Positions 31,549 through 54,032 of a stretch of 64,000 bases of DNA are shown in pieces. This DNA comes from Eubacteriales bacterium. GTDB taxonomy: Bacteria > Bacillota > Clostridia > Oscillospirales > CAG-272. Numbering within the stretch: position 1 is the first letter of the stretch; every line of letters begins with the position of its first letter. The position numbers and the translations under genes were made by a program. The DNA lies in NCBI GenBank assembly GCA_045531795.1, contig JAZSET010000073.1:202-64201 (forward strand), given 5' to 3'. The notes beneath the pieces are model-generated. The model saw only the letters and a list, made by a program, of their open reading frames with translations, ran no database searches and had not been told where the DNA came from.

Positions 31549-34500
31549 ATGTGCGAACTGTCTCAAATAACCTACAATGACGCGGTAAACGGACTACAGC
31601 TTAATTGTTATGCAGATACTCTTGTGTATCATAAAGCAAACAGTTCAGAGCGTAATCTTGTTGCCATGCGTTTTGGAGGTTATCCCGAGCAAGTCAGGGC
31701 AATGACAGATGTACTCCGTAAAGGAACGGGCGTGCAGGCTGTCGTTGAAAATCACAAAATCATCTTGAACGCCAAAGAGAGTGCATACAAAAGAAGTGTT
31801 ACCCACGACGGTATTTATGCCGAAGGTACGCTTTTTGCCCTCGATGATGAAAGCGGTGAAATGAAGGATGAGGAAAATGTTGAAGTAGAAAGACCGGAGA
31901 GCAAACGAAAAATGTATATCTTCTGTGATGAAGGAGATACCGATTCGTTGTTTGAAGAGCTTGATAAGAAAACTTCCATACCCCTTATCCCTCAGTTCAA
32001 AGACTACATCTTAGAGAAATGTATGAAGCGTAAGATCTTGGTGCCGCTTGAAGTGTTATCTTCAAGTATTCACTTTGATGCGTATATGCTTGAGGTGCGA
32101 AATGATGAAAAGGAAATCGAGGATATTGTTAATGCCGGACTTAAATCAGGCAGGATATCCATTCCCGGTGCAATTAAAAACAGCGGTTTTGAAAACATTG
32201 GAACGGTATCGCAATATCTGAATACCTATGGCGTTACCATTGCAAGCAGAATAAGAGAGTCGTTTAATCCCCTATTCGATCCGTCAACAGAAACTATCTG
32301 TAATAGGCTTAAGGTAATTAACGGCTATCTTAAAAAGAATGTGGGATATACCTTGTATTCCGCACAGCTTGCAGTTGCAGAAGCACTAAAACGCAGACTT
32401 GACAAATCAAAGGTCGGTCTTGTTGTTGCAGAATGCGGAAGCGGAAAAACAAAAATCGGCTCGGCTGCACTGTCAGCTCATCAGAACGGAAAAAAGTGCT
32501 TTAATGTCATTCTCTGTCCTTCTCATGTTACAAAGAAGTGGGTACGGGAAATCGAAGAAACTCTTCCGAATACACAGGCTGAGGTAGTGTATAACCTTGC
32601 CGATATTGACCGTGTACGGCAAAAACATCTTGAGGGCGATAAAACCACATACATCGTTTTGTCAAAGGAACGTGCAAGAGACGGATATATGAGAAAACCG
32701 GTGGCGGTTTACTCTAAAGTCCGAAAGGCTTATGTCTGTCCTTGGTGCGGAGAACCTATTATGATGGAAATTAACGATGATGGTACACATTACAGAGTTC
32801 GTGCAGATCAGTTCTACTTTCAAAAGGAAAACACCAAAAACCATAAGTGTGAGTCTTGCGGAAGCGTTCTCTGGGGTGTCCTTAATCCAGATGACAGACG
32901 AGTGGAATTTAACGATTGGGTGAAGATCGGTGGTTACGGATTCGTATACCGACAGTTTGCTCACAGGCATCTTGAAAAGACAAAGGATCCAAAGGTGCTT
33001 TCAAAACTTGAGGAAATAATCTCAAATCCCGATGTTGCCTTTATCGCAAAGGGAGCATATAACCGCTATTCTATGAGCGATTACATTGCCGAACGCTTTA
33101 AGTCCATTGACGGTGTAATACTTGACGAATTACATCAGTTTAAGGGCGACAGCGGACAGGGCGATGCTATGGAAACTCTTGTAGGATGCAGTAAAAAGGT
33201 CATAGGAATGACGGCAACACTTATTAACGGTTATTCCAGCGGTTTGTTCTATCTTCTTTACCGTATCGTACCGCATTTAATGAGGGTGGATAATAAGGAG
33301 TACAACAATCCCGGTCTGTTTAACAGTGAATACGGTGTTACTGAAACGACTTATGAGCTTAATGATGAGGGCGGATATAACTCCAACAGTAAAAGCCGAA
33401 AGCGAAAGAAATTGCATGAACGGCAAAAGCCCGGTGTGTCACCTCTTGTCTATTCAAGGTTTCTCATTGACTGTGCAGTTTTCTTATCTCTTAATGATAT
33501 GGGAAAGCATTTGCCAGACTATGAGGAAATTCCGATAGAGTTAAATCTCACACCGGAAATCGAAGACGAGTACAAACGCATCGAGAAGGAATATCGTAAC
33601 TGTATGAATAGGCGTGACGGCTCGGCCCAAAAGATAATGTCAAGCTTTTTAAGCCTGCTTACCACATATCCCGACCAACCTTACGACCATGAGCCTATAT
33701 ATTATCCAAAGTCAAAAGAACCAATCGTTACACCAAAGAATCTTTCGGATATCAGTGTACTTAACGAAAAAGATGTTGCTACACTTGATATTGTAAAACG
33801 AAAGGTTTCAGGAGGCGAACGTGTACTTATCTACACAAGCTGGATAAGTATTGACACACAGGATAAGCTCAAAGGTATTTTGGAGGACAACGGATATAAG
33901 GTGGCAGTTCTTGAACAAAAGGTTGCACCTGAAAAACGAGAAGAATGGGTACAAAAAAGAGTAGATGACGGTATAGATGTCCTTATTACAAATCCCAGTC
34001 TTGTGGAAACGGGCTTGGATCTTAATAGCTTTACAACACTTATCTACTACAACATCGGATATAATCTTTTCACTTTCAGACAAAGCTCGCGCCGTTCTTG
34101 GCGTATCAATCAGACATCCCCTCGCATTGAAGTATATATTCTGTATTTCAAGGGTGTAATGCAGGCAAGAGCAATTCGTCTTATGGCATCAAAGCTTGCA
34201 GCGGCAACTCTTGTTGAAGGCAACTTTACAGATGAAGGACTTGCGGCTATGAGCGATTGTACTGATATGACCTCGCAGCTTGCACGTGAGCTTACAAAGG
34301 GCATTCGTGATGAGGTTGAGGATGTTGCGGCTATGTTCAAGAAAATGGCGATTATCAAGGATAATACCGATGTGGAGGAAGAAACCGACACATATACCAT
34401 TTATGTTGACGAAGAAGAAGCGAAAAAGCAGAAAAAGGATATGGAGCTTACAGTTGCACAGAAATTGCAAAGGGCGATGTTCCTTGCAAAGCAGGCAAAT

Positions 34501-34587
34501 GCAAGAAAATCCTCTGTGTTTTTCTCTATGTACACAAACGAAGATGTGCCTGCAGGTACACAGTGTACGCTTTTCGATGTAGCATAA
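31549..34587 (+). CDS. SNF2/DEAD-like superfamily-2 helicase with inserted zinc ribbon
   Basis: Motif I 'AECGSGKTKIG', motif II 'ILDELHQFKG', zinc ribbon 'CPWCGEP...CESCGS', C-terminal helicase motifs 'TNPSLVETGLDL' and 'FRQSSRRSWRINQ'. The track start is TTG at 31540, and an in-frame ATG lies at 31549. Confidence 0.8.
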   Translation: MCELSQITYNDAVNGLQLNCYADTLVYHKANSSERNLVAMRFGGYPEQVRAMTDVLRKGTGVQAVVENHKIILNAKESAYKRSVTHDGIYAEGTLFALDDESGEMKDEENVEVERPESKRKMYIFCDEGDTDSLFEELDKKTSIPLIPQFKDYILEKCMKRKILVPLEVLSSSIHFDAYMLEVRNDEKEIEDIVNAGLKSGRISIPGAIKNSGFENIGTVSQYLNTYGVTIASRIRESFNPLFDPSTETICNRLKVINGYLKKNVGYTLYSAQLAVAEALKRRLDKSKVGLVVAECGSGKTKIGSAALSAHQNGKKCFNVILCPSHVTKKWVREIEETLPNTQAEVVYNLADIDRVRQKHLEGDKTTYIVLSKERARDGYMRKPVAVYSKVRKAYVCPWCGEPIMMEINDDGTHYRVRADQFYFQKENTKNHKCESCGSVLWGVLNPDDRRVEFNDWVKIGGYGFVYRQFAHRHLEKTKDPKVLSKLEEIISNPDVAFIAKGAYNRYSMSDYIAERFKSIDGVILDELHQFKGDSGQGDAMETLVGCSKKVIGMTATLINGYSSGLFYLLYRIVPHLMRVDNKEYNNPGLFNSEYGVTETTYELNDEGGYNSNSKSRKRKKLHERQKPGVSPLVYSRFLIDCAVFLSLNDMGKHLPDYEEIPIELNLTPEIEDEYKRIEKEYRNCMNRRDGSAQKIMSSFLSLLTTYPDQPYDHEPIYYPKSKEPIVTPKNLSDISVLNEKDVATLDIVKRKVSGGERVLIYTSWISIDTQDKLKGILEDNGYKVAVLEQKVAPEKREEWVQKRVDDGIDVLITNPSLVETGLDLNSFTTLIYYNIGYNLFTFRQSSRRSWRINQTSPRIEVYILYFKGVMQARAIRLMASKLAAATLVEGNFTDEGLAAMSDCTDMTSQLARELTKGIRDEVEDVAAMFKKMAIIKDNTDVEEETDTYTIYVDEEEAKKQKKDMELTVAQKLQRAMFLAKQANARKSSVFFSMYTNEDVPAGTQCTLFDVA

Positions 34588-34606
34588 CAGAAAGGATTAA
34601 ACAAAA

Positions 34607-35797
34607 ATGAGGGTTACAGTAAACAGAAAAATAATGCTTGAACACTTAAAGTCTATGAGCAAGCTTGTTCCGACAAGCAGTGCGATTCCCGAACTTAAAG
34701 GTTTTCTTGTTGAAGCAAATGAAGATGACGGATATTTGTATGTGTCGGCAAACAATATTGAGTCGGCAATACAGAGAAAATTTACTGCCGGGATTGAAGA
34801 AGGCGGAGCTTTTGTTCTCGATGCAAGACTGCTTATGGGCATTCTCTCGAAACTTGCAGGCGATGATGTGCTTTTTGAAATGGAACAGGAAGGAAGTGTG
34901 AAAATAGGCTCGGAGAGTTGTACTTATACAATGAGTACTCTCAGAACAGAGAATTTTCCGCGACCTGATATTCCTTTTCCCGATACCACGATGCACGTTG
35001 CCGGAATGAAACAGTTATATAACAAAACAAGTGATACTGTTCACAAGAATGTCGAGGAAATACTCAACGGTATACACCTTGAGATAACTCCAAACGAAAT
35101 AAGGGCAACAGGCTGCGACGGAAAGTGTATCGGAAGTGCCAGACACGAAATGTCTTGTGGCGGCAGTATGAAAGTAACTCTTTCAAGGGTAGCTTTGTCT
35201 TACCTTGTATCTGCTGCAGGCGATGAAGAGCTTGAAGTAGGTTTGTGCAGAAATTTTGTTGTCTTTATGAAGGAAGGAATGCTTTTCTCGGCTAAAAAAC
35301 TCGCAAGGGAATATGTCGATACAGAAAAGATATTTTCTTCTGTGGGCAGCGAATATGAAGCAAAGGTAGAGTTTAAGGAGTTCAAAGAATGTGTACGCAG
35401 TGCCAAAAACATCGCATCTATGGGACACGAAACTTCGTATATTAAACTTGACTTTGAAGATGAAGGTATAAAGGTCTCTACACAAAACGATGTCGGAGGC
35501 GGAGCAAATACTGCTGAAGCGGTTATGTTCAGCGGCACTTCGGGGCTTAGCTTCTACTATCCTGCGGCTTTGCTTGAAAATGCCTTTAAGACGATTGACG
35601 GTACTATGATCGTAAGGGTTGATAAACGAGGCTATCTTCTCATTTTCAATAAACTTGACAGATACCTTATTACTCCCCTTCCTGCATCGGCTGTTCAAAG
35701 TCAGATCTTAAGGTTTGAAAACCAAAAGAAAATAGCTCGCGGAGAAATCGAAGATAAGACTGTGAAAAAAACGAGAACTTCAAGAAAAGCGGCATAA
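34607..35797 (+). CDS. DNA polymerase III beta sliding-clamp-like protein
   Basis: About 396 aa. The N-terminus 'VTVNRKIMLEHLKSMSKLVPTSSAIPELKGFLVEANEDDGYLYVSANNIESAI' and 'FVLDARLLMGILSKL' follow the DnaN pattern. Confidence 0.6.
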   Translation: MRVTVNRKIMLEHLKSMSKLVPTSSAIPELKGFLVEANEDDGYLYVSANNIESAIQRKFTAGIEEGGAFVLDARLLMGILSKLAGDDVLFEMEQEGSVKIGSESCTYTMSTLRTENFPRPDIPFPDTTMHVAGMKQLYNKTSDTVHKNVEEILNGIHLEITPNEIRATGCDGKCIGSARHEMSCGGSMKVTLSRVALSYLVSAAGDEELEVGLCRNFVVFMKEGMLFSAKKLAREYVDTEKIFSSVGSEYEAKVEFKEFKECVRSAKNIASMGHETSYIKLDFEDEGIKVSTQNDVGGGANTAEAVMFSGTSGLSFYYPAALLENAFKTIDGTMIVRVDKRGYLLIFNKLDRYLITPLPASAVQSQILRFENQKKIARGEIEDKTVKKTRTSRKAA

Positions 35798-35813: not shown

Positions 35814-37196
35814 ATGTTATACACCAAAATGAATCAAATCATTGATGAAGTAAATGCAGAAGTGGCAGAAAGAGAGGAGCTTGTCGAGCTTATCGCCATT
35901 GCCTTGTTATCTAAGAAGAATCTATTTATCTTAGGTGATACAGGTCAGGCTAAAAGCTATGCCATAAATCTTTTCCGTAAGCGTATTGAGGGAGCAAAGC
36001 AATTTGAAAGGCTTATGTCAAAGCAGACCGATGAAGAACAGCTTTTCGGCAGACTTGACCTTTCAAGTCTTATTCCCGGCAATATGCCGCATCAAGAACT
36101 TATGAAAGATGAGTGTTATGCAAAGGCATATACCGAGCTTCAAAAGACTTATGACAACTACAAGAGCACTCACGACACTACAAGCATCAGCCGTGCAGTA
36201 GAACTGCAAAACATGGCAGAACGCTTAAAGAGTATTATCTGTACACTAAGCAGTACATCACCAAAGATGATAACAGACGGAAAGATACCCGACAGCCACA
36301 TTGTGTTTCTCGATGAGATCTTCAAGTCGGGCGACGGTATCTTGAACTCACTGCTTACGGCACTCAATGAAAAGGTATACACAAATGAGGGACAGACGGT
36401 AGATATTCCGGTTGTCTCTTTCTTTTCCGCTTCTAACGAAATACCAAACTTCAACGATTCTGCACAGGCTATCTTAAAGCCCTTGTATGACCGCTTTGAA
36501 TTAAAGGTACTTACCGAGTATGTCAAGGAAAAGGACAATCGTTTGCAGGTTTTGAAGGGTAAACAAGGGTATCTTCCCACACCGTCTAAAACCAGTATCA
36601 CCTTATCTGAACTCGAACAAATGCAAGTCGAAGTACAGGCGGTATTTGTCCCCGACTCAATCAATGAGCTTATGGACAATGTACTGTGCGAACTAAGACG
36701 AGCAGGCGTTCATGTGTCGGACAGAAAGTTTTTCGGATTTACTCCGATCGTTCGTGCAAAGGCATATCTTAACGGAAACACAGAGGTAACATCAAAGGAT
36801 CTGCTTGTTCTCAAAAACTATTTTTGGAACAGACCTGAAGAAATACCCACTGTCGAAAAGGTACTTTGCGACCTTTGTGAAAATCCGCTTGGTGCTGCCA
36901 TTGACAGTCTCATAGCTATGGCAGGAGAAAGTCAAGCAGAGATGAATGAAACAATAGCAGCACTTGATGCAGGGTGCGACGAAAGAGAAAAGATGAAGTC
37001 TTATGTTGTCTTTTCAAAACAGTTGTTTCGCATTTATCTTGAACTTGATAAACTCAAGACAGATGATTTGAGCGATAGCGATTTACAGGAAGTAAACGGC
37101 GGTTTACTTACACTTGAAGAAATGCTCACCGAAGCGGCAAAGTCAGTCGGCACGACCTACATACCGCTCAGTGACCAAAAACGATTAAATTTTTAA
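35814..37196 (+). CDS. MoxR/RavA-like AAA+ ATPase
   Basis: Walker A 'LGDTGQAKS', Walker B 'HIVFLDEIFKS', and 'LNSLLTALNE', typical of MoxR-class AAA+ proteins. Confidence 0.65.
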   Translation: MLYTKMNQIIDEVNAEVAEREELVELIAIALLSKKNLFILGDTGQAKSYAINLFRKRIEGAKQFERLMSKQTDEEQLFGRLDLSSLIPGNMPHQELMKDECYAKAYTELQKTYDNYKSTHDTTSISRAVELQNMAERLKSIICTLSSTSPKMITDGKIPDSHIVFLDEIFKSGDGILNSLLTALNEKVYTNEGQTVDIPVVSFFSASNEIPNFNDSAQAILKPLYDRFELKVLTEYVKEKDNRLQVLKGKQGYLPTPSKTSITLSELEQMQVEVQAVFVPDSINELMDNVLCELRRAGVHVSDRKFFGFTPIVRAKAYLNGNTEVTSKDLLVLKNYFWNRPEEIPTVEKVLCDLCENPLGAAIDSLIAMAGESQAEMNETIAALDAGCDEREKMKSYVVFSKQLFRIYLELDKLKTDDLSDSDLQEVNGGLLTLEEMLTEAAKSVGTTYIPLSDQKRLNF

Positions 37197-37208
37197 AGGA
37201 GAATTATT

Positions 37209-37652
37209 ATGGGATTTAACAAAACTATTTTTATCGGAAGACTTACGAAAGATCCTGAGATTAGAATGTTCGGAGAAGCAAAGGTGGCAAACTTTACACT
37301 TGCAGTTGACAGACGATTCAAGAGCAAGAACGAAGATGCACCCACAGCGGATTTTATCCCCGTTACTGTATGGCGAGGAACTGCTGATTTTGTAGAAAAG
37401 TATTTTACAAAGGGTAAGCAGGTTGTTGCTTGCGGCTGGCTTGAAACCTATTCCTACGAAAAAGACGGTCAAAGAATTCACTCCTTCCGTATCAATGCGG
37501 ATGAGGTTGGATTTGCCGACACCGCAAGGTCCGATAACGGCGGCGGACAGAATAACGGAGGAACAGGTGCTTTTTCCGGTCAGATGAGTCCCGGCGATTT
37601 CAGCGGCTTTGATCCTACAGATTTTAGCAATGACGATGACCTTCCGTTTTAA
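37209..37652 (+). CDS. ssb: Single-stranded DNA-binding protein
   Basis: 'NKTIFIGRLTKDPEIR', an OB fold, a Gly-rich linker, and the acidic tail 'DDDLPF'. Confidence 0.9.
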   Translation: MGFNKTIFIGRLTKDPEIRMFGEAKVANFTLAVDRRFKSKNEDAPTADFIPVTVWRGTADFVEKYFTKGKQVVACGWLETYSYEKDGQRIHSFRINADEVGFADTARSDNGGGQNNGGTGAFSGQMSPGDFSGFDPTDFSNDDDLPF

Positions 37653-37714
37653 TTAAGAATCAGAGGTTGTGCGGGTAAGGATAACACCTTATCTGCACAC
37701 CTTCAAGGAGTAAT

Positions 37715-39289
37715 ATGGGACAATATAAATTCATAGAGGATGTTCTTTCGGGACTATCTTCTTTAACACAAAAAACGACAGGAGAAAAAACAGACAGAGT
37801 TCTTAAATCCACTCGCATTGAACAGGCAATCTACGAAGACCTTTCTTCCGATGCAGATGGACTTGCAAGGTACGCATCAGAAGGCAGTGAAAAGCTTAAA
37901 TCCTTTTCCAGCCTTGTCAACGATGTATTTCAATCCGTTTACGGACTCAGAGCAAGATACACAGACGATAGCGACCTTTCAGCCCTTTCAAAGAGTCTTA
38001 ACAAGACTATCTTGGGAGATCTTATGAGTGATGAAAGTTATGCTGCTGTCAAAAGTGTATGCGAAGGCAAAGAGCTTCCCGCAATCGGCGCCACTGAAGA
38101 ATTTACCGAAAAGTTAGTCGAAAATCTCGATGATGTTTTAAGTAAAACTACAGGCGGCAAAGGTAAGGCAGATGCCCTTGACAAAATGCAGGATGATGAG
38201 ACCGCTTTACAGGAAAAATTACAAGAACTTCTAAAGAAAAGAGAAACCACTCCGCAAAGCGGAATGGAAGCACTGAACGAAAGAATCGTAAATACGGCTA
38301 ACCGCATTGTTTCAAAGCGAGAACAAATGCAGATGTTTGAAAACATCATACAACAGAGTCTCGGAAAGAGCAGCGGTGAGCTTAAAAGGATTGTTTCTTC
38401 TTGTGCCGATTCTGCACTTGAGAGAGCTGAAGGAATAAGCAATATGCTTATGGCTTGGGGTGATGGGGACGCCGAAATGAAAAAGACTCCGGTAAACACC
38501 GAAATCTTAAAGAAAATGGCATCCTCTCACAAACTAAGGCTTATAGCGAAATTCTTGGGAAGATACAAGGAGAAACTTCGTTCCAAACGCCTTGCGGGAT
38601 TTACCTATGGCAGAGGTGAAAAGTATGATATCGAATACGGAAACAACATTAACCGTGCTTTGACATCAGAACTTGCCACTCTCGCATCCCCCGATCTTGT
38701 ACCTCTTTTCTTGAGGAAGTACCAAAACAAATCATTAAAGCAGTACCGAAAGCGTGAGCCTGAGTACAAAGGCGGTGGAGATATTATCGTCTGCCTTGAT
38801 GAATCTTCATCTACCTTTGGCGAAAACAATGCTTACGGTATGGCACTTGCAATGGTGCTTTATGAGATATGCAGAGAAAATCACGCAAATTTCGCACTTG
38901 TACATTTTGCAAAGAATACAAAGGTGGACTATTTTCCTAAAGATGAAAAGGTATCATCCGGGAAGGTGCTTGACTGTGCTGAAACCTTTCTCGGCGGCGG
39001 TACCAACTTTGAAAATCCTCTGCGAGAAGTATTTGCTCTGACGACAAACGGAAAGCTTGATAAGCCCGACATTGTATTTGTCACAGACGGCGAATGCGAT
39101 GTCTCGGATGAATTCTTGAAACTGTTTGACGAATTTAAGGCAGATACAGGTGTAAAGCTCACAGGCATACTTCTCGATAAGGGAAGCTGCTTTGAATTTT
39201 CTTTACAAAAATTTGCAGATGTGATTTTCAGAACAAGTGAACTTGAGGAGGATACAATCATTGAACGAAGCATTGAACAATTTTCGTAG
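37715..39289 (+). CDS. von Willebrand factor A (VWA) domain protein, likely partner of the MoxR ATPase
   Basis: C-terminal VWA domain with MIDAS 'DIIVCLDESSS', 'GGGTNF' and 'IVFVTDGE'. Confidence 0.7.
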   Translation: MGQYKFIEDVLSGLSSLTQKTTGEKTDRVLKSTRIEQAIYEDLSSDADGLARYASEGSEKLKSFSSLVNDVFQSVYGLRARYTDDSDLSALSKSLNKTILGDLMSDESYAAVKSVCEGKELPAIGATEEFTEKLVENLDDVLSKTTGGKGKADALDKMQDDETALQEKLQELLKKRETTPQSGMEALNERIVNTANRIVSKREQMQMFENIIQQSLGKSSGELKRIVSSCADSALERAEGISNMLMAWGDGDAEMKKTPVNTEILKKMASSHKLRLIAKFLGRYKEKLRSKRLAGFTYGRGEKYDIEYGNNINRALTSELATLASPDLVPLFLRKYQNKSLKQYRKREPEYKGGGDIIVCLDESSSTFGENNAYGMALAMVLYEICRENHANFALVHFAKNTKVDYFPKDEKVSSGKVLDCAETFLGGGTNFENPLREVFALTTNGKLDKPDIVFVTDGECDVSDEFLKLFDEFKADTGVKLTGILLDKGSCFEFSLQKFADVIFRTSELEEDTIIERSIEQFS

Positions 39290-40052: not shown

Positions 40053-40064
40053 TGGAGGTAAACT

Positions 40065-44503: not shown

Positions 44504-44689
44504 ATGGTAAATGACATTGTGCTAACACAAACAAAAAAGGTAGTTATGACTATGGATAAAACCGTAACTGTCGTAACAGAGAAACTTGAAACCGTAGATA
44601 AGTACGGCAGACGAAAACTCCAAAACTATGAGAGAACCGAAAGTGTTGAAAATCACGATCTCGGACTTGATTTATGGAGGGCTGCTTAA
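44504..44689 (+). CDS. Small protein (61 aa) ending in Ala-Ala, adjacent to the E1-like gene (candidate modifier)
   Basis: ORF between the E1-like and methyltransferase genes, with stop/start overlap TAATG. The sequence is predominantly beta-strand-like by eye. C-terminus '...LDLWRAA'. Confidence 0.4.
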   Translation: MVNDIVLTQTKKVVMTMDKTVTVVTEKLETVDKYGRRKLQNYERTESVENHDLGLDLWRAA

Positions 44690-46382: not shown

Positions 46383-46976
46383 ATGAAGTTAAAGGAAGAA
46401 GAATATTCAAGACAACTGCTTATGATAGTCTGTCTTTTTAAGGTGTTTCATGATGCAGGTATTACCATTCTCGAAAGATGTGATGGTGCAACACCTCTTC
46501 ATATGGACTATTACTATGAATTTGCGTTAGATGCTATTCAAAATGCCGCACCGATTGTGTACAGCGATGAAAATCTCTACACGAAACACGGATTCTCATA
46601 TGACGATGATGAAGTAAATCTTTATGCATATTCGTCAAAGGAATTTAAGGAGTATTACCGTATCGCTCGAAAACTACACCGTATCGAAGGCTGTAAGACA
46701 AAGGAAAACCCGTATATCAAAGAGTTTGAAAGAAAAATTGAAAGATTACGAGGTTTTGACTCATATAACTTTGATTACTTTATTGGCGGTAAAAGAAAAG
46801 GTGCAAGACTTGAGGCTTTGTGGGGATATGAATTTGATTGTGAGATTCCCATGTGCTTGTGGATCGTGCGTGTAATGTCTTTTGCAAAAGCGGAACTTCC
46901 AAAAATTCAAAAGAAGTACCGAGAAGCACGCCGTAAAAAACGTTCGGGAGGTAAGCATCATGCGATACAACGATGA
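46383..46976 (+). CDS. Hypothetical protein (197 aa)
   Basis: ORF with an aggagg RBS. No motif recognised. Confidence 0.45.
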   Translation: MKLKEEEYSRQLLMIVCLFKVFHDAGITILERCDGATPLHMDYYYEFALDAIQNAAPIVYSDENLYTKHGFSYDDDEVNLYAYSSKEFKEYYRIARKLHRIEGCKTKENPYIKEFERKIERLRGFDSYNFDYFIGGKRKGARLEALWGYEFDCEIPMCLWIVRVMSFAKAELPKIQKKYREARRKKRSGGKHHAIQR

Positions 46977-47616
46977 AATGGTAATACACATTACAAGTGA
47001 AGGCAAAATTTTGGTTGAGGACATAGAAAACGGTGTCAAGGCATTCAAAACGGTAGAGCCGGAGGTATTCATCAACTGTGTGAAAGATTCTATACGCACA
47101 AGTATGGTTTCAAGCGGCATCTTGCCAAGCGGCGTATTTTATTACGGCGCAGGAGATGGCGGTAAACAAAAGGTATGTGTAGAATTTCCTGCAAGAAGAT
47201 GTGATGTTATGTACAAGAAGACCGAGTATAAGGACTTTCCTATACCGAGACTTGTTTTCGGTTTTGTCCTTGACGGTGATCGTATTACAAATGTCAATCT
47301 TGGTGTTGTAGATGATGGTAACCTTACTCCCAAAAGTAAGATGTACATATATCCGTTTTCCAATGTAAGCGGATATAGACTGTGTTGCGGTTCAAATAAA
47401 TTGCCGAACATTAAGTCTTTGCATCAGCTAACAGGAGTAATGTACTTTATCATGTCAATGCCAAATAACAACGACCACTACCGTTCGGAACGCACAAAAC
47501 TCGAAACAGAACTCAGAACAGTTTTTGAGCTTCTCAAGGATAAAGATCCTAAATACTATTATACCGATGTTCTGAAAGAAAGCGGAAAAACTCTAAAAGA
47601 TTTTGTGGATAATTAA
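46960..47616 (+). CDS. E2/UBC-like protein candidate (PRTRC-type cassette member)
   Basis: 'IYPFSNVSGYRLCCGSNKLP' parallels the E2 'HPN(x)nG.IC' active-site arrangement. GGGAGG lies upstream of the ATG at 46960. The gene sits in the same cluster as the JAB and E1-like genes. Confidence 0.4.
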   Translation: MRYNDEMVIHITSEGKILVEDIENGVKAFKTVEPEVFINCVKDSIRTSMVSSGILPSGVFYYGAGDGGKQKVCVEFPARRCDVMYKKTEYKDFPIPRLVFGFVLDGDRITNVNLGVVDDGNLTPKSKMYIYPFSNVSGYRLCCGSNKLPNIKSLHQLTGVMYFIMSMPNNNDHYRSERTKLETELRTVFELLKDKDPKYYYTDVLKESGKTLKDFVDN

Positions 47617-47631: not shown

Positions 47632-48435
47632 ATGAGGGAATATTTTGAAGATTTCGGAAAGCCTTTTCCTGCAAGCGATGTCAGTTGGCGTTTGCAATAT
47701 GTAAACAAAGAGAAAATGCAAGGAATAGCTGTTCCTTACCTTGATGCCCGTGCCATTGCCGACAGACTTGATGAGGTAGTGGGACAGATGAATTGGAAGG
47801 ACAGTTACACCCCTTGGCACGATTGCACAGGAGGCAAAAAAACAAAACAGTCCCAGCTTTGCACCATTTCTATCTTCGATGCGGAAAATAATCAGTGGAT
47901 AGATAAAACAGACGGTGCAGAAGACAGTGATATTGAGCCAATCAAGGGCGGTCTCTCAGATGCCTTTAAGCGTGCTGCGGTGAAATGGAATATCGGAAGA
48001 TATTTGTATAGCTTCAGCACGGTTTGGGTAACTGCGGTAGAACGTGGCGATAGCTATGTTATAGCAGATTCGGAAAAATCAAAACTCGAAGATGCATATA
48101 ACAAACAGGTTGCAAAGATTTTTGGTGGCAGTGCACCTACTACCACTACAAAAGCACCTTCCCAAAAGCCCGATGTTACACCCGGTAATTCCGGACAGCC
48201 CGGTGCTGAAAAGCCTACCCAGAATGATGACATCTATGAAGTTCGCAAAATTCAGGTACAGGACAACCGCAGTTCTATTCTGCTTTTTGGAAACGGAAAA
48301 CAGTTCCAAGCATTTATGAATGGTACTGATGCCCGTTTACAGCCCGGTACCAGAATTAAAAACATCAATGCTCAAAAGGGTAAAAATGCTTACGGCAGTT
48401 ACGCAATACTCGGTTCTTATGATATTGCGGCTTAA
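47632..48435 (+). CDS. Rad52/Sak-like single-strand annealing protein
   Basis: 'VPYLDARAIADRLDEVVGQMNWKDSY' and 'GGLSDAFKRAAVKWNIGRYLY' match the Rad52/22 family signature. Confidence 0.65.
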   Translation: MREYFEDFGKPFPASDVSWRLQYVNKEKMQGIAVPYLDARAIADRLDEVVGQMNWKDSYTPWHDCTGGKKTKQSQLCTISIFDAENNQWIDKTDGAEDSDIEPIKGGLSDAFKRAAVKWNIGRYLYSFSTVWVTAVERGDSYVIADSEKSKLEDAYNKQVAKIFGGSAPTTTTKAPSQKPDVTPGNSGQPGAEKPTQNDDIYEVRKIQVQDNRSSILLFGNGKQFQAFMNGTDARLQPGTRIKNINAQKGKNAYGSYAILGSYDIAA

Positions 48436-48449: not shown

Positions 48450-50210
48450 ATGATAAAAATAAACAGATTTAATATTCTCAGTGTAAGAATGGAAGGTTTT
48501 AAAAAATTCAAGGATGCATACACAATGGATTTCGACAAACTTACTTGCATTTCGGGCAGTAACGGTGAGGGTAAAACCTCAATTGCCGATGCGATTGCCT
48601 TTGCTTTTTGCGGTACTCCTTTTTGGGGCGAAAAAAGCTGTGACAGGCTTCTTAATTCGGAAAGCAAAGAAATGTCCGTAAGTATTCAGATAGTCGATGA
48701 AAACGGCGAAGTACATACACTTTCACGCACCAAATACGGCAACAATACAACTATTATCTTTGATACACTTCAGGTACGACAAACAGATCTTACCACAATG
48801 TTTGCAGAAAAGGATGTGTTCCTTTCTCTCATCAATCCCATATATTTCATTGAAAAGATTGCAGAGGACGGCAGAGAGTTTCTTCAAAAGCTCGTTCCGC
48901 AGCCCGACCAAAGTGAAATACTTGCACAGATGAGTGAAAGCACAAGGGCACTTCTTGAAAGCGAGAGCTTGCTCGATCCCGAATACTTTATTAAGAAACG
49001 CCGAGAAGAACTCAAGGCACTTGAAGATGCGGACGCATACCTTGCAGGTCAAAAAGATTTGCTTAAGGCTCAGTTTGATGATACTTCTTCTAAGATGGAC
49101 GATGTTCTGAAAAAAGGCGATGAGATAGTAAGGAAAAAGCAATCACTTGAAGAAAAACAGTTTGCCGGCATTGATGTGGAAAAACTGAGAGCAAGGCAGG
49201 CTGCCATTGCAGAAAGTCTTTCGGGGGAAGTGCGTACACGCCTTGCCGCAAAGCAGGCTGAAGCACAAAACAGACAGTACATTTCCAAATTCACACCTGA
49301 AATTGCAGAAATTGAAGCAGAAATTCGTGCTCTATCCGAAAGGTGTAATCGCCTTGTAACACAAATGAAAGGTATAAAGGTTGGCGATACTTGTCCCACC
49401 TGCCATACCACTGTTACTGAGGCAAATTATAAAAGCATTATTGCCGGAATGAAAGCGGACTATGACAAGGCTTGTTCGGACGGTAAAGCAGCCATTGCCG
49501 CAAGAGCAGAACTCTTGGCACTCGATAAGAAGAGTAAAGAAAAGTTTGAGGAATTTCGTCAGGCTGATCTTAAAAGAGTGGAAGCAGAACGCTCTGAGCT
49601 TGGCACTGCCGATGTATCCGAAATCGCACTTATTGAGGATAAGCTCAAATTCGGAAATCTTACACCGGAGGAATACGACGAACTTTGTGCTCTTACAACT
49701 CAGGCAGAAAGTTATCTTAAGGAAGTTGAGGTATTATGTGCCGCAAACGATATTCCCGGTAAAATCGAGAAAATCGACAGCGACCTTGCTCAGAATAAGA
49801 CAAAGAAAATAGATCTTCTGAGTCTCATTCATGCAGTAACCGAGTATATGGCAAAGAGAGCAGAGATAACACTTCAAAGTCTTCAGATGAACAGAGCATC
49901 CATTAAGCTTTTCGATGTAGTGAAAACTACGGGAGAACTTAAAAATGTGTTCCGTTTTACCTATGACGGCAAGGATTACCGATGGCTTTCTACATCAGAG
50001 CGAATAAAGGCAGGTCTTGAAGTGTCTGCACTTCTCGAAAGACTTACAGGGCTTATATATCCCAAGTACATAGACAATGCAGAGTGTATCACCACAAAGC
50101 TTGACCGCATTAACGGACAGGCAATTTTGGCATATGCGAGAAAGACACCTCTTGTGGCTACATATCCGTTAAGACAAGTGGCAGCTCAGAGAGAGGCGGT
50201 CGCAGCATGA
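48450..50210 (+). CDS. Rad50/SbcC-like SMC-type ATPase with CxxC hook
   Basis: Walker A 'ISGSNGEGKTS', a long coiled coil, a central 'CPTCH', a C-terminal 'LSTSERIKAGL' signature-like motif and 'YIDNAE'. Confidence 0.65.
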   Translation: MIKINRFNILSVRMEGFKKFKDAYTMDFDKLTCISGSNGEGKTSIADAIAFAFCGTPFWGEKSCDRLLNSESKEMSVSIQIVDENGEVHTLSRTKYGNNTTIIFDTLQVRQTDLTTMFAEKDVFLSLINPIYFIEKIAEDGREFLQKLVPQPDQSEILAQMSESTRALLESESLLDPEYFIKKRREELKALEDADAYLAGQKDLLKAQFDDTSSKMDDVLKKGDEIVRKKQSLEEKQFAGIDVEKLRARQAAIAESLSGEVRTRLAAKQAEAQNRQYISKFTPEIAEIEAEIRALSERCNRLVTQMKGIKVGDTCPTCHTTVTEANYKSIIAGMKADYDKACSDGKAAIAARAELLALDKKSKEKFEEFRQADLKRVEAERSELGTADVSEIALIEDKLKFGNLTPEEYDELCALTTQAESYLKEVEVLCAANDIPGKIEKIDSDLAQNKTKKIDLLSLIHAVTEYMAKRAEITLQSLQMNRASIKLFDVVKTTGELKNVFRFTYDGKDYRWLSTSERIKAGLEVSALLERLTGLIYPKYIDNAECITTKLDRINGQAILAYARKTPLVATYPLRQVAAQREAVAA

Positions 50211-51295
50211 CAAGCTTTGTATATGATACTTTCGATATTGTGGATGTTGCCGCACGCCTTGGTATCAAATTCCACCCTACACAAAGTAATAATGTGGAGT
50301 ATAAGGCTTTATGTCCCTTTTGCTCGGATACTAAATATCATTTGGGAATTAACAGAAGTAAAGAAAAGTTCAACTGCTTTAAGTGCGGAGAACACGGTAA
50401 CAGCGTTACTCTGTATGCAAAGATAAATGGCATCTCAAACAAGGAAGCACACAGGCTTCTTAAACTTGAAGAAGAGAGGTCGGAATTTAAGCCGATATAT
50501 TTTCCGCCTGTGGAGTCCGAAGCACCAATTCGTCCGATTGAGGACCGACATAAAGTGTACTATGATTTTCTGAATCTTCTTCGATTAAACAGAGGGCATA
50601 TGCTTAATCTGCAAAATCGAGGGCTTGACTTTTCGGATATCTACACCTTTATGTATAAGAGTGTACCGACAGATAATGTGTCAAGACGCGAAGTGCTTGA
50701 AGCACTCTCGGCAAAACACGATCTGACAGGCATTCCGGGCTTTTGGTATGACGAAAAGGGTACGGCTCATATGTACTACAATAAACTTGGCGGTATTTTC
50801 ATTCCCGTTTGCAATAAGGAAGGGTATATACAAGGTCTTCAAATGAGACTTGATGTTTCCGAATATTCAAGCGAAAAGAAATTCCGCTGGTTTTCAAGCC
50901 GACACTTTGACGGCGGTACAGGTGCAAAGCCGTGGATTCATGTTGTAGGAGATACTTCATCAAAAGAGATTTGTCTTACTGAGGGAGCGATGAAGGCAGA
51001 TATTGCAAGTGTACTTTCAAATGGCAGACTTTTTGCTGCCGTTCCGGGAGTTAATGCAATCGCCTTTCTTCCCGAAGTTTTGAGCGAACTTGGCATAACA
51101 AAGGTGTATGAAGCTTTTGATATGGACAAACGCTCAAAGCCCGAAGTAAAGCAGGCACTTATTGCTTTAAGAACGACTTTATTTCAAAACGGAATTGAAT
51201 GTGAGAGCTGTTCGTGGAATCCCTTGTATAAGGGTATCGACGATTATATGCTTGCAAGAACAAAACTGGCACAGAATATGCCCATTGCGGCATAG
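50207..51295 (+). CDS. DNA primase (CHC2 zinc finger + Toprim-like domain)
   Basis: 'CPFCSDTKYHLGINRSKEKFNCFKCGEHG', then 'CLTEGAMKADI' and 'EAFDMDKR' (Toprim Glu and DxD). Confidence 0.75.
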   Translation: MTSFVYDTFDIVDVAARLGIKFHPTQSNNVEYKALCPFCSDTKYHLGINRSKEKFNCFKCGEHGNSVTLYAKINGISNKEAHRLLKLEEERSEFKPIYFPPVESEAPIRPIEDRHKVYYDFLNLLRLNRGHMLNLQNRGLDFSDIYTFMYKSVPTDNVSRREVLEALSAKHDLTGIPGFWYDEKGTAHMYYNKLGGIFIPVCNKEGYIQGLQMRLDVSEYSSEKKFRWFSSRHFDGGTGAKPWIHVVGDTSSKEICLTEGAMKADIASVLSNGRLFAAVPGVNAIAFLPEVLSELGITKVYEAFDMDKRSKPEVKQALIALRTTLFQNGIECESCSWNPLYKGIDDYMLARTKLAQNMPIAA

Positions 51296-51312: not shown

Positions 51313-52314
51313 ATGAGTAAATCAATGGAACAGTTTATGGTGGTAAATTCAGCTACAGGCGAAGAACAGGGTATTTTGGGTAAGTATATGTACTACTCTC
51401 TTCCCAAGCTCATTGTCAAAGCGGAAAAGGTAAAGGAAATCTGCGATCAGATTGGCTTTCCCTTTCTCTTAAAGGATAACATTCCGGTAAGCGATGCCTT
51501 CAGAAGTGCTACGGGAGATATACACGACAGAATTGAAGAATCCTTCGGGGACGAAATCAAGATATGTCGTATATATTGCCGTGATAACAAGAAGGTCGAT
51601 GCCGATGTTCTTTCCCGTGAGCTTGTAGAAGAAACTCTTTACGAGAGCACAAACACTTACCGCAAGCTTGCCAACATAACCCTTGACAAAAAGACGGGTT
51701 CTCTTGTTTTATCCGATGTGGATTATTCTTCAGACAGAAACATTCTCGGATATTTTGAACAGGCGGAAAGGCTTTTCAAGTTATACAAGGACTGTGTAGG
51801 CAACAGAAATATCGAAAATCTTGCAGAAAAGTATGTTTTCTCGATGCACGCAATAGGTATCGCCGCAAGAGGACATCACTACTTTGTCCCCAAAGCATAT
51901 ATGCACGAGATAGCTTTGCTTGAGGAATTTTTAGAGCTAATAGGCAAAGAAAACCTCTTTACTTATTCAAGCAATCGTGATGCTACATATATCAGTATCA
52001 ACTCGATGTATGTTATTGACGATGCAAAGCAGAGAGGAAAAATGTCAAATGAGTTCTACAAGGATATGGGACGCGAGATTGAGGAGTACCAAAAGCGTAT
52101 GATATCCCTCATTCAAAGCGGAAACAGCAGTCAGAGAATACTTGACCGCTGGGAAGCAAAAATATCCACCCTTGAGCAGAAAAAGCGTGAATATGAAACC
52201 ATACTCAAGCAGGATCTTTCCGGCGTAGATGAAGAATTTACAATGCTTCGTGATATGTGCAATCAGTTTAAGCTAACTGTACGCAGTTCACAAGTATTCG
52301 GCGCCGTAGCTTGA
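51313..52314 (+). CDS. Hypothetical protein (333 aa)
   Basis: ORF with an RBS. No motif recognised. Confidence 0.5.
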   Translation: MSKSMEQFMVVNSATGEEQGILGKYMYYSLPKLIVKAEKVKEICDQIGFPFLLKDNIPVSDAFRSATGDIHDRIEESFGDEIKICRIYCRDNKKVDADVLSRELVEETLYESTNTYRKLANITLDKKTGSLVLSDVDYSSDRNILGYFEQAERLFKLYKDCVGNRNIENLAEKYVFSMHAIGIAARGHHYFVPKAYMHEIALLEEFLELIGKENLFTYSSNRDATYISINSMYVIDDAKQRGKMSNEFYKDMGREIEEYQKRMISLIQSGNSSQRILDRWEAKISTLEQKKREYETILKQDLSGVDEEFTMLRDMCNQFKLTVRSSQVFGAVA

Positions 52315-52368
52315 AACCAAAACGGAGAGTGCAGGTAAAACTGCACTCTCTCTAAAATGGAGGTACAT

Positions 52369-52668
52369 ATGACAGGAAGTATGAGCATAGGCAAAATCAA
52401 ACCCGTTGGTAGAATTGATTATCTCGGTTCAAACGGCAAAATTGGTGAAAGGTTTTATTCTTTTAACGAAGAGGATTTCCTTAAGACCGTAAAAAACGAT
52501 AATTATTACGGAGTCCCTATGGTTATCAATGTTTACCGAGATGAAAACGGCAAAACTATTCCGCTTGATTTTTTGTTAAGCATTGATCCACCCGTACAGG
52601 GCTTCCACATTCTTGATTATGAAGGAGAATTTGAATATGGTAAAAATACAGAACTTATCGCAGCTTAA
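52369..52668 (+). CDS. Hypothetical protein (~99 aa)
   Basis: GGAGG lies 6 nt upstream of the ATG at 52369. Confidence 0.45.
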   Translation: MTGSMSIGKIKPVGRIDYLGSNGKIGERFYSFNEEDFLKTVKNDNYYGVPMVINVYRDENGKTIPLDFLLSIDPPVQGFHILDYEGEFEYGKNTELIAA

Positions 52669-52951
52669 AAAGGCATTACAAGTCGGCGCAGAATACACAA
52701 TGGTTGCTCACAAAAACAGACCTGACTGTGTTGGTCTTATCCGTGTTGTAAATGCCGTTCAAAGTAACTGTGTTTACTGTAAAATTAAGAACCAGCCTGT
52801 ACACCCGTATTCCAATATGAACGGCGGTCTCGGTATACGTATGGATTTTGAAAAGTCATCTCATTATGAGTTTGGCAATACCGTCAAATTCTATTTGAGT
52901 TCTGACAAATCCTCACCGTTTTACGAGTTTGTGGTTCTAAAGACAGCATAA
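52637..52951 (+). CDS. Hypothetical protein (~104 aa)
   Basis: 'gaaggag' RBS before the ATG at 52637. Overlaps the upstream gene by 32 nt. Confidence 0.45.
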   Translation: MVKIQNLSQLKKALQVGAEYTMVAHKNRPDCVGLIRVVNAVQSNCVYCKIKNQPVHPYSNMNGGLGIRMDFEKSSHYEFGNTVKFYLSSDKSSPFYEFVVLKTA

Positions 52952-53202: not shown

Positions 53203-53211
53203 GAGAAAAAT

Positions 53212-53739
53212 ATGGATAACAAAGAATATGTATGTTACTGCGTCGGCGACAAATACGATAAGGTCATGAAAGGCGACGGTGCGATTTTTGAAATGAATGA
53301 GGATAAGTGTTTTATCAATATTGGATTTACCGATATTTCAGAAGCAGAAATACAGGCAATCAGTCAGGGAAAGCTTAATATTTTCCTTAGTGTAATTGAA
53401 GGCGTTGTTTTTGTTTCGGCTTCATTTGATAATAAGCTTATTATGGATATGCCCTTTAACGCAGGGCTTTATCCCGATTTCAACATTAAAAATCCGGCAC
53501 CTTTCGGATATATTGTGCCGATAATTGCGGTTGATAACAGAACAAACATTATCAAGGCGATTCGTGTGGTAGGTTTTGATGCCGAGTTTAGTGCAAAGCT
53601 TTATGCTTTTGCAGAAAAACAATGGAGTGACAAGATTACCAACCACGATGAGCGAGTCGAGAGTGTTTATAAGCGTTATTCTCCAACCGACATTATTAAA
53701 CACGCAATTCTTAAAAACAAAGTGGAGGAAATACTGTGA
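53212..53739 (+). CDS. Hypothetical protein (175 aa)
   Basis: aggag RBS. No motif recognised. Confidence 0.45.
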   Translation: MDNKEYVCYCVGDKYDKVMKGDGAIFEMNEDKCFINIGFTDISEAEIQAISQGKLNIFLSVIEGVVFVSASFDNKLIMDMPFNAGLYPDFNIKNPAPFGYIVPIIAVDNRTNIIKAIRVVGFDAEFSAKLYAFAEKQWSDKITNHDERVESVYKRYSPTDIIKHAILKNKVEEIL

Positions 53740-54032
53740 AAAAAAGGAACAGAGTCTATCAGAGACTTGATAACGACTATCGCAAGTTTCGTAATGAAAT
53801 GCTTTCCAAAGATCCGGAAGAACTGTTCGACAGAGCCTATAAGGTTTTCTGCATAACGGAATTCTATTCGTATCTTACCGATTCATACGAACTTACGCCA
53901 CAGTCGGTATCATTCATTCTGAGTTTTAAGGGGAATGTTTTTGAGCAGCTTTACTATGAGTGGCTTAGAAGCGATTATACACACAGAGAGGTTTTTGAAG
54001 AAGTAATAGACAGTACCTTGTGTGCTGCCTAA
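53736..54032 (+). CDS. Hypothetical protein (98 aa)
   Basis: GTG start overlapping the upstream stop. This is the last gene before a strong terminator. Confidence 0.45.
   Translation: MKKRNRVYQRLDNDYRKFRNEMLSKDPEELFDRAYKVFCITEFYSYLTDSYELTPQSVSFILSFKGNVFEQLYYEWLRSDYTHREVFEEVIDSTLCAA

Follow-up and report, generated by a model that had tools for sequence, protein, structure and literature searches.

Terminal Ala-Ala is a ClpXP degron in E. coli RecN, in the N-terminal fragment of LexA and in Caulobacter CtrA. Signals of the ssrA type, among which RqcH Ala-tails are also counted, are added co-translationally or reside on a single regulator. An unbiased screen in E. coli identified AA and LVA-type termini as the strongest C-terminal degrons, dependent on ClpXP (PMC10862746), and ClpX is reported to contact the Ala-Ala-COO- of ssrA (PMC7652416). 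In type II CBASS, Cap2 (E1-E2) conjugates the C-terminus of the cGAS/CD-NTase and Cap3 (JAB) reverses this; a terminal Gly or Ala of cGAS is kept only together with Cap2 and Cap3 (PMC10097602). Proteobacterial plasmids and ICEs carry a further gene set, covered by TIGR03734-03741. This PRTRC (ParB-related, ThiF-related cassette) includes in its canonical form a protein C ending ..GDKG, its neighbours share no terminus, and no functional study of it was among the papers that our search listed.

The element analysed here looks like a conjugative plasmid of gut Clostridia, carrying RepA_N, ParA/ParB and T4SS genes, among the latter those for VirD4-like and VirB4-like ATPases. The T4SS genes share the 1.1-31.1 kb region with adhesin and sortase genes. 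All plus-strand ORFs were re-derived within the window (the whole stretch of 64,000 nucleotides) for a survey of C-termini, and termini were then compared per protein family across about 250 related loci. In the DNA-processing block 8 of 28 proteins end in Ala-Ala and four more in x-Ala, exactly the set named in the original prediction, and seven of the last nine genes of the block carry the feature. Elsewhere in the window the count is 0 of about 32, with no called ORF ending in Ala at 1.1-31.1 kb or 54.5-60.8 kb. We found no earlier description of such a clustered terminal Ala-Ala signature in the literature. The relevant features are:

31540..34587, + strand: SNF2/DEAD-type helicase, x-Ala end ..FDVA, a looser tag (Pfam Helicase_C/DEAD/ResIII)
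34607..35797, + strand: Pol III beta-like sliding clamp, ..TSRKAA (Pfam DNA_pol3_beta, 1.8e-13)
35814..39289, + strand: MoxR AAA+ ATPase, SSB (..DDLPF) and VWA protein, conserved and untagged (Pfam)
42452..43780, + strand: JAB/JAMM metalloprotease (PRTRC_A-like), untagged (Pfam Prok-JAB)
43777..44499, + strand: ThiF/E1-like adenylyltransferase (PRTRC_ThiF-like), ..IRKAA (Pfam ThiF, 1.9e-17)
44504..44689, + strand: 61-aa protein directly 3' of E1, ..LWRAA (from sequence)
44674..46053, + strand: DUF6094 methyltransferase, x-Ala end ..KHLA (Pfam DUF6094, 6.9e-105)
46882..47616, + strand: Prok-E2_D ubiquitin-conjugating-like protein, likely start ATG 46960, untagged (Pfam Prok-E2_D, 3e-05, just under the Pfam gathering score)
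47632..48435, + strand: Rad52/22-like annealing protein, ..YDIAA (Pfam Rad52_Rad22, 1.4e-12)
48450..50210, + strand: Rad50/SMC-like ATPase, ..EAVAA (Pfam AAA_23/SMC_N)
50207..51295, + strand: primase (CHC2 zinc finger plus DUF3854/Toprim-like), ..MPIAA (Pfam)
51313..52314, + strand: DUF6744 protein, x-Ala end ..GAVA (Pfam DUF6744, 2e-84)
52357..52668 (alternative start 52369), + strand: small ORF of 99-103 aa, ..ELIAA (from sequence)
52583..52951 (likely start 52637), + strand: small ORF, x-Ala end ..LKTA, doubtful as a member (from sequence)
53736..54032, + strand: DUF3848 protein, ..TLCAA (Pfam DUF3848, 2.2e-12)

The next gene's ribosome-binding site lies within 10-20 nt downstream of many of the tagged genes.

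The comparison of orthologues that the original prediction had called for bore the signature out and showed it to be far stronger than could be seen from the window alone. Terminal Ala-Ala is kept family by family even where upstream residues vary: in the related loci it ends 63 sliding clamps, with three more in VA, out of 67; 104 of 120 Rad50-like proteins (7 AG, 7 AS); and 94 of 108 DUF6744 proteins (5 VA), while the protein database gives 114 AA and 6 VA among 120 DUF6744 termini. The Rad52-like protein has AA in 101 of 103 unique family members. For the 61-aa protein, which matched no Pfam family and whose single-sequence AF2 model is unreliable, 17 AA and 6 VA were counted among 26, and the end ..R-[A/V]-A, with R at -3 conserved, recurs in 23/26; its positional equivalent in the C. 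leptum-type clade is a protein of 72-84 aa ending ..RRAA. Lower shares of AA are seen in E1 (AA 27, VA 13, IA 8 of 66), in the SNF2 helicase (VA 13, AS 13, AA 10 of 49) and in the primase, where 44 of 107 members are tagged and the tag is lost in a high-GC Oscillospiraceae clade. In the wider Rad50-like family (87 full-length representatives at 50% identity) AA occurs 35 times, AG 16, VA 9 and AS 8, AG and AS swapping with AA on neighbouring branches. The tag of DUF3848 appears weakly conserved (CA 4, AA 2 of 10), and two small ORFs have too few relatives to gauge conservation of the tail, that at 52357 having a single homologue in the fetched loci (..RLAA) and that at 52583 two family members (AE and TA). 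One member of the predicted set probably does not belong to it: the ..HLA end of the methyltransferase follows a family pattern of L-[T/A/G/S], with LT most frequent (LT 37, LA 29, LG 9, LS 5 of 87). Other proteins of the block almost never have the tag, AA termini being found in 0/64 MoxR, 0/57 SSB, 0/57 VWA, 4/79 JAB and 1/93 E2-like proteins.

In the clamp the tag is carried on an added extension: canonical plasmid DnaN ends ..PVRL or ..PVRV, and the element clamps extend 4-40 residues beyond this point in a basic tail ending AA. In the DUF6744 protein, for which no structural match was found with the AF2 model (pLDDT 88.6), confidence falls in the last residues. Chance is excluded as the source of the cluster. 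AA termini make up 2.3% of non-family ORFs in the related loci, which is an upper bound on the background, and 0.56% of phage ORFs (n=1,966); at p=0.02 the probability of at least 8 of 28 is 6e-8. When the block is compared with the remainder of the window by Fisher's test, P is 0.0012 for AA ends and 2e-5 for Ala ends of any kind. The differing Ala codons and three stop codons noted in the window are matched in the orthologues, which use every one of the four Ala codons at each of the two positions, together with all three stops. Residue -3 is unconstrained (E, K, R, Q, I, L, M, V and P all occur), the tagged tails being enriched in Q, P, R and K, and constraint falls on the last two residues only, with AA dominant and VA the main alternative. 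The variety of codons and stops and the free -3 residue therefore place selection on the last two residues of the protein.

The original prediction had offered three explanations: a ClpXP degron, a handle for the E1/E2/JAB enzymes and a signal for T4SS export. The first fits best, because AA with VA as alternative corresponds to the two strongest ClpXP tags of the E. coli screen and because the signature also occurs in elements without E1/E2/JAB; the second has real support, though the trio is not needed, and the third has no positive evidence. We put the probability at roughly 0.5 that the tails are built-in, ssrA-like [A/V]-A-COOH degrons read by host ClpXP. [Ala/Val]-Ala-COOH is a portable two-residue tag that closes a flexible tail rich in Lys, Arg, Gln and Pro; some 11-17 unrelated cytoplasmic DNA-processing proteins of the plasmid family have acquired it and keep it (clamp, Rad52-like, Rad50-like, DUF6744, primase, SNF2 helicase, E1, small regulators and others). 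By mimicking the ssrA end it would present these proteins to the host ClpX unfoldase, and they might be continuously degraded or remodelled by ClpXP. If so, the module for replication, recombination and establishment would turn over quickly, its level being governed by continuing expression and by the load on the host protease.

The resemblance to ssrA-type degrons extends to the Ala-Ala-COOH end with VA tolerated (PMC10862746; PMC7652416), to an exposed appended tail and to carriers of the DNA-repair and replication type, here exclusively cytoplasmic DNA-processing proteins. A host of the element family has its own tmRNA tag ending ..LAFAA, encoded in L248 by a gene that adjoins the element, and the related E1/E2 loci of pCER270 and L416/L417 are untagged. 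Unlike ssrA-type signals, the tag is hard-wired on 11-17 unrelated families of one mobile-element lineage. Against the degron reading, terminal AA is necessary but not sufficient in E. coli, where the tag is weaker if -3 is Pro, Gly, His or a small polar residue, and E, K, Q, R or P fills this position in many of the present tails (..RPAA, ..KEAA, ..QQAA). The AG (16/87) and AS (8/87) ends of the wider Rad50-like family are also awkward, since YALAS serves ClpXP only weakly as a tag and the E. coli screen (PMC10862746) shows depletion of Gly and Ser. Moreover, AA is rare on phage Rad52 relatives (2/71) and on phage ORFs generally, and therefore the trait is not a general habit of mobile elements, and L248/L334-L340 lost several AA tags although the host ssrA tag ends in AA. 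For ClpX of these Clostridia, the specificity is assumed.

A possible but unlikely alternative is that the element's own E1, E2 and JAB use the tails as handles. E1 would adenylate the terminal Ala carboxylate and pass it as a thioester to Cys168 of E2 and then to target lysines, with JAB reversing the reaction, much as happens to cGAS in type II CBASS, except that there would be many donor proteins; if the two readings are combined, conjugation would cap the free carboxylate and so shield the AA degron from ClpXP. The assignment of the trio was correct, and can be refined to a distant PRTRC-like set: the best NCBIfam matches are PRTRC_A (JAB; TIGR03735, 50.5 bits), PRTRC_ThiF (E1; TIGR03736, 103.6 bits against a cut-off of 144.75) and PRTRC_B (E2), all far below the curated cut-offs, and the set, like PRTRC itself, lies on mobile elements near a plasmid dnaN, with no PRTRC_C/E/F found. 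Catalytic residues are intact and conserved across 41-58 sequences (GxGGxG and Cys188 in E1; YPFSNV...C168 in E2; E313, H360xH362, S370 and D373 in JAB); JAB and the E2-like protein are possible readers of the tag. As in type II CBASS (PMC10097602), E1, E2 and JAB occur without a ubiquitin-like protein beside non-Ubl proteins with a conserved tiny end, the wider family being limited to A, G and S; no Ubl was recognisable in the window and no protein of the block ends in Gly. A further point in favour is the ..R-[A/V]-A end of the E1-adjacent small protein. In 120/121 loci E2 is encoded upstream of Rad52, and AA on Rad52-like proteins, confined to this element family, is found in 9/9 viral contigs with the trio vs 2/71 without. 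The only lineage without JAB, E1, methyltransferase and E2 in the canonical place, L248/L334-L340, has lost AA on Rad52 (..IAS), DUF6744 (..LWT) and primase (..GQ).

Nevertheless, the signature does not require the trio, nor does the trio suffice for it. Locus L354 (25.7% GC), where the signature stands next to an integrase and a 'Gp3-like' gene, has AA or VA on 7 of 15 block genes (P ~1e-9) and contains no ThiF, E2 or JAB in 19.7 kb; in L352 (30.6% GC), again without E1/E2/JAB in the locus, an [I/V]A end is found on Rad52, Rad50, a methyltransferase, ArdC and two further proteins. Conversely, pCER270 and L416/L417 have related E1/E2 and no signature. Known E1 enzymes act on modifiers that end in Gly, as does canonical PRTRC protein C (assigned by name only), which has no multi-protein signature around it, whereas Ala is far commoner than Gly at the tagged ends. 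Donors from 11-17 families would be unprecedented, and of the three enzymes only E1 has the tag. Differences from type II CBASS are also considerable: E1 and E2 are separate small PRTRC-type proteins, the match of E1 to Cap2 models is confined to its Rossmann part, CD-NTase and effector are lacking in the element, and both last residues are constrained on many proteins.

Rather improbable is another reader of the free [A/V]-A carboxylate, serving remodelling or assembly instead of degradation, for which the element's MoxR AAA+/VWA (MIDAS) pair or host FtsH or ClpA/ClpC with an adaptor would be candidates. MoxR and VWA are kept in all clades examined and never tagged, and the free -3 residue and tolerated terminal G or S are an imperfect match to E. 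coli ClpX. The case is made by exclusion, with no positive evidence, and the L354 and L352 loci contain no MoxR or VWA.

Still less credible is a T4SS signal, in which a basic tail plus AA would export establishment proteins (primase, annealing protein, clamp and a methyltransferase/ArdC-like protein) into the recipient. Leading-region proteins of some plasmids are translocated, and the tagged proteins are of kinds useful in the recipient right after DNA entry; the tails are K/R-enriched, VirD4-like and VirB4-like ATPases are present, and the ArdC homologue of L352 ends ..EIA. Yet a strict terminal dipeptide is not known as a T4SS signal, the tag is absent from relaxase and T4SS-region proteins, JAB, SSB and MoxR of the same block are untagged, and L354 has the signature with no T4SS gene in 19.7 kb.

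Finally, the absence of any protein-level function, with the ends reflecting a DNA or RNA motif (GCNGCN plus stop, for instance for translational coupling or as a GCNGC methylation site), a gene-calling artefact or chance, might draw on the closely following ribosome-binding sites but is effectively refuted by codon variety (four Ala codons at both positions, three stops, VA encoded by GTN GCN accepted), by stop positions that are independent of start-codon calling, by family termini, by the agreement of 114/120 independently predicted database proteins and by P values of ~1e-7 or lower.

Re-derivation of the ORFs in the window, where every long gene lies on the + strand, reproduced the shared terminus that had been predicted for the block of DNA-processing genes at 31.5-54 kb: eight of its 28 proteins end in Ala-Ala (AA) and four more in x-Ala. 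As had also been claimed, a terminal Ala is absent from all called ORFs at 1.1-31.1 kb and 54.5-60.8 kb. The proteins concerned are:

34607-35797, + strand, sliding clamp, AA end
43777-44499, + strand, E1, AA end
44504-44689, + strand, 61-aa protein, AA end
47632-48435, + strand, Rad52-like protein, AA end
48450-50210, + strand, Rad50-like protein, AA end
50207-51295, + strand, primase, AA end
stops at 52668 and 54032, + strand, two further ORFs, AA end
+ strand, x-Ala end: SNF2 helicase, DUF6094 methyltransferase, DUF6744 protein and the ORF stopping at 52951

The AA background is at most 2.3% (an upper bound, from non-family ORFs of related loci) and 0.56% among 1,966 phage ORFs, so that eight of 28 is far beyond chance (P ~6e-8 at p=0.02; Fisher test of the block vs the remainder of the window, 0.0012). 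From the originally proposed set of twelve, the AA enders stand, whereas the DUF6094 methyltransferase, whose family ends in L-[T/A/G/S], probably falls outside the tagged set. The 197-aa ORF at 46383-46976 belongs to a family of which 36 of 49 members in related elements carry a terminal AA, yet its own end is ..AIQR; the tag has apparently been lost from it or was never there. This ORF overlaps the annotated start of E2, the true start of which is probably the ATG at 46960. The family of the protein encoded at 46065-46373 (102 aa, ..RQFF) ends in an aromatic pair (FF 18, FC 16, also FI and YF; n=61), a second and different conserved C-terminus within the block.

Scans of genome-collection, viral-contig and metagenome data yielded more than 400 related loci, about 250 of them belonging to the element family of the window, from MAGs and isolates of Clostridia, Oscillospiraceae and Ruminococcaceae. 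Termini were counted on unique sequences, which were assigned by family HMMs made from clustered ORFs.

C-terminal dipeptides by protein family in the related loci
Rad52-like: 101/103 AA
Rad50-like: 104 AA, 7 AG, 7 AS (n=120)
Clamp: 63 AA, 3 VA (n=67)
DUF6744: 94 AA, 5 VA (n=108)
Seven families absent or untagged in the window: 74-100% AA
61-aa protein: 17 AA, 6 VA (n=26)
E1: 27 AA, 13 VA, 8 IA (n=66)
Primase: 44/107 AA
SNF2 helicase: 10 AA, 13 VA, 13 AS (n=49)
JAB: 4/79 AA
E2: 1/93 AA
MoxR: 0/64 AA
SSB: 0/57 AA, own ..DDLPF tip retained
VWA: 0/57 AA

An independent check on 120 DUF6744 database proteins predicted by others gave 114 AA and six VA. The terminal dipeptide is near-invariant across about 35-100% sequence identity, the lowest identity of homologues to the window proteins being ~34%, and the residues before it are freely variable. 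Orthologues use all four Ala codons at both positions and all three stop codons. Since the tag is kept despite varying upstream residues and mixed codons and stops, the target of selection is the C-terminal dipeptide of the protein. The conservation in orthologues that the original prediction called for was thereby found in the Rad52-like, Rad50-like, clamp and DUF6744 families, and its claim of a protein-level signal that is not a DNA repeat holds across orthologues. Altogether the tag is present on at least 11 unrelated families in one mobile-element lineage. Members of the wider Rad50-like family end in A, G or S preceded by A or V, with swaps between neighbouring branches.

At 20001-30172 of locus L114, the 168-kb circular Subdoligranulum variabile plasmid OY725881.1 (PLSDB record), the module recurs with a mixture of termini (E1 ..RTA, Rad52 ..SAA, Rad50 ..KAG, primase ..LAA, DUF6744 ..PCA). 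In five loci of a C. leptum/Ruminococcaceae clade (L182, L186, L189, L191, L194), two genes are inserted at about 2.8-4.4 kb, between the small protein ending in RAA and the methyltransferase, which here ends ..SLG. The product of the first is conserved, 141 aa long and terminates in ..[K/A/I/L]VG; the second gene, absent from L194, encodes ~360 aa with a CxxxCxxC resembling the radical-SAM signature.

We consider it about an even chance (~0.5) that the AA tails are ssrA-like degrons read by the ClpXP protease of the host. Eight window proteins carry an ssrA-like terminus (AA or VA with a free carboxylate), conserved family by family, and AA and VA are the termini permitted in the window's clade. 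An unbiased screen in E. coli found AA and VA to be the two strongest C-terminal tags, both ClpXP-dependent (PMC10862746), and binding of the Ala-Ala-COO- of ssrA by ClpX is described in PMC7652416. A host of the element family encodes a tmRNA with the tag AKTNNFNQELAFAA, which ends ..LAFAA; in the related locus L248 the tmRNA gene adjoins the element. Natural ClpXP substrates that end in AA include RecN, the LexA N-fragment and CtrA. The tails may be exposed: plasmid DnaN clamps normally end ..PVRL and the element clamps add 4-40 residues ending in AA, and tagged tails generally show an enrichment of Q, P, R and K. In the AF2 model of DUF6744 the confidence falls to 58 at the end, but the last helix reaches residue 332 of 333. 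An accessible AA terminus should be visible to ClpX, whatever other reader exists.

Several observations weaken the degron reading. The AA-ended proteins do not show the favourable residues at position -3 (hydrophobic; no Pro, Gly or small polar residue), since charged or Pro residues are frequent there (E 49, K 47, R 37, Q 36, then I, L, M and V; P 9), although the E. coli -3 rule is a preference and not an absolute requirement. Moreover, AG and AS variants exist, the trait is rare in phages, and tags were lost in a lineage without the E1/E2/JAB trio. It is because of these points that we do not place the ClpXP reading above ~0.5. At the same odds, the tag would resemble the ssrA degron in its mode of action and differ in being hard-wired on a whole mobile-element module. 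In L248, the tmRNA gene (13389-13783, - strand) adjoins a large serine recombinase (11741-13519) at the element end, which suggests integration at or beside ssrA.

An unlikely but more novel alternative is that terminal AA serves as a handle for the element's own E1/E2/JAB enzymes, either alone or with these acting as a degron cap. The PRTRC-like E1 would activate a dozen replication and recombination proteins at their terminal Ala, E2 would join them via their C-termini to targets and JAB would release them, a ubiquitin-like pathway without ubiquitin. Because conjugation would remove the free carboxylate, it would also turn off the ssrA-like ClpXP degron, which would give a reversible stabilise/destroy switch over the plasmid's whole DNA-processing module.

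The closest NCBIfam models for JAB, E1 and E2 are PRTRC protein A, ThiF and protein B, respectively, yet every score falls far short of the curated cut-off (ThiF 103.6 vs 144.75 bits; protein A 50.5 vs 101.8; protein B 18.7 vs 131.45). Protein C of a PRTRC cassette is lacking, and the 61-aa protein has no PRTRC_C match; the sole ParB of the window (1982-2911) lies 40 kb from the trio. In the canonical PRTRC cassette of Pseudomonas pBT2101, by comparison, protein C ends in Gly and its neighbours share no common terminus. Nor is the trio a CBASS Cap2/Cap3 set: PADLOC matched only E1 residues 9-77 to Cap2 models and neither E2 nor JAB, Pfam scans of the window found no CD-NTase, and E1 and E2 are separate genes, whereas Cap2 of type II CBASS is an E1-E2 fusion. 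The 61-aa protein was rejected as a beta-grasp ubiquitin-like protein (Ubl), having no Pfam or NCBIfam match and only itself as a hit in a word-index search; its single-sequence AF2 model (one long helix, pTM 0.41) was uninformative.

Several findings favour a role of the trio. The motifs of E1 (G15-x-G17-G18-x-G20, D121-N122-N123-x-x-R126, C188), E2 (Y157-P-F-S-N-V162...C168) and JAB (JAMM residues E313, H360, H362, S370, D373) are at least 93% conserved, so the residues expected of an active conjugation module are intact, and no Ubl is recognisable in the window, where none of the small proteins scanned has a Ubl-type Pfam match. The small protein beside E1 ends ..R-[A/V]-A, and 120 of 121 loci have E2 upstream of Rad52. 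Among 80 viral-collection loci with Rad52 relatives, the protein ends in AA in 9/9 of the element family vs 2/71 of true phage, both of the latter from genomes of 65-70% GC. The Rad50-like termini (A/G/S after A/V) recall cGAS of type II CBASS, the terminal Gly/Ala of which is conserved only alongside Cap2/Cap3 (PMC10097602). Finally, L248 and the sediment contigs L334-L340 lack JAB, E1, methyltransferase and E2 between VWA and Rad52, and here Rad52 ends ..IAS, DUF6744 ..LWT and primase ..GQ. In L248, a RadC-like JAB and a weak DUF6809 match occupy the place of the trio.

Against this stands L354 (25.7% GC), where seven of 15 co-directional block genes are tagged (..IAA, ..IAA, ..KVA, ..VAA, ..EAA, ..LAA, ..KVA; P ~1e-9) and Pfam and six-frame HMM searches found no ThiF, E2 or JAB within 19.7 kb. 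L352 (30.6% GC), also without a trio in the locus, carries Rad52 ..LIA, Rad50 ..EVA, methyltransferase ..AVA, ArdC ..EIA and two more. Conversely, B. cereus pCER270 and loci L416/L417 have E1/E2 and lack the signature. The signature thus does not require the trio, nor is the trio enough to produce it, and the terminal tiny residue is not restricted to trio-bearing loci as it is in CBASS. Strict dependence on E1/E2/JAB is excluded by L354 and L352, and a general property of PRTRC-like cassettes by pBT2101, pCER270 and pTHECO01 (Thermobacillus). A viral-contig search for more trio-less relatives returned the same elements only. For the link to the co-encoded trio first proposed, the intact enzymes and the missing Ubl speak in favour; the tagged, trio-less L354 and L352 speak against it.

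Another reader, such as the MoxR/VWA proteins of the block, seems improbable. Still less credit can be given to a T4SS export signal, since no protein encoded in the T4SS region bears the tag; to our knowledge, no sequence definition of a T4SS translocation signal exists for Gram-positive systems. An artefact is hardly conceivable: chance, gene-calling error and a DNA motif are ruled out by the codon mix, the statistics and the 120 independently predicted database proteins. High Ala or GC composition was rejected (window ~41% GC, L354 25.7%), as was a general phage habit (2/71 phage Rad52, 0.56% of phage ORFs).

As the original prediction had supposed, no account of clustered Ala-Ala termini on a conjugative or other mobile element came up in a full-text literature search; among the papers listed that mention PRTRC, none is a study of its function. 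Individual regulators and repair proteins with C-terminal Ala-Ala degrons are known, and a categorically new mechanism is doubtful; new here is one two-residue tag hard-wired across an entire functional module that spans at least 11 unrelated families. If ClpXP reads it, a host protease sets how long the replication, recombination and establishment proteins of these conjugative plasmids and ICEs of gut Clostridia persist. This would offer a simple handle on how the plasmids establish themselves, on copy control and on host range, as well as a sequence rule to predict unstable proteins in uncultured Firmicutes. If E1/E2/JAB reads it, this would be the first function for the uncharacterised PRTRC-type systems and the second case, after cGAS, of Ubl-free ubiquitin-like conjugation. 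Whichever reader is correct, there is now a list of candidate substrates.

The window appears to cover most of a ~65-kb conjugative plasmid, the longest recorded contig with its DUF6744 protein being 65,098 bases. Encoded there are two tRNA genes, ParA/ParB, a sortase, a 2,233-aa TED/SpaA adhesin, a T4SS set (TrbL-like, VirB4-like, VirD4-like), RepA_N and a resolvase, followed by the DNA-processing block (SNF2 helicase, beta-clamp, MoxR, SSB, VWA, Prok-JAB, ThiF, DUF6094 methyltransferase, Prok-E2_D, Rad52-like, Rad50-like, primase, DUF6744). A fold search with the good model of DUF6744 gave best PDB TM-scores of only ~0.1. Downstream of the tagged block, 54564-59235 holds an unrelated cluster, none of it ending in Ala (HTH regulator, NTP_transf_5, thymidylate-kinase-like protein, AMP-binding enzyme and a 344-aa protein without match). 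Within a low-GC island at 40000-42000 (30% vs ~41%), the ORF at 40621-41637 (338 aa) shows a weak RES-domain match (E 0.0028); none of the related loci has a homologue of it, which makes inserted cargo or a toxin the probable explanation. The tRNA-Lys(CTT) (322-397) and tRNA-Asn(GTT) (903-978) genes, directly upstream of parA/parB, are either plasmid-borne or the mark of an integrated element. Upstream of the T4SS genes, 5276-14035 encodes the sortase, a transglutaminase-like protein and the 2,233-aa surface protein, with a thioester (TED) domain and 18 SpaA-type repeats, which together probably form a mating adhesin.
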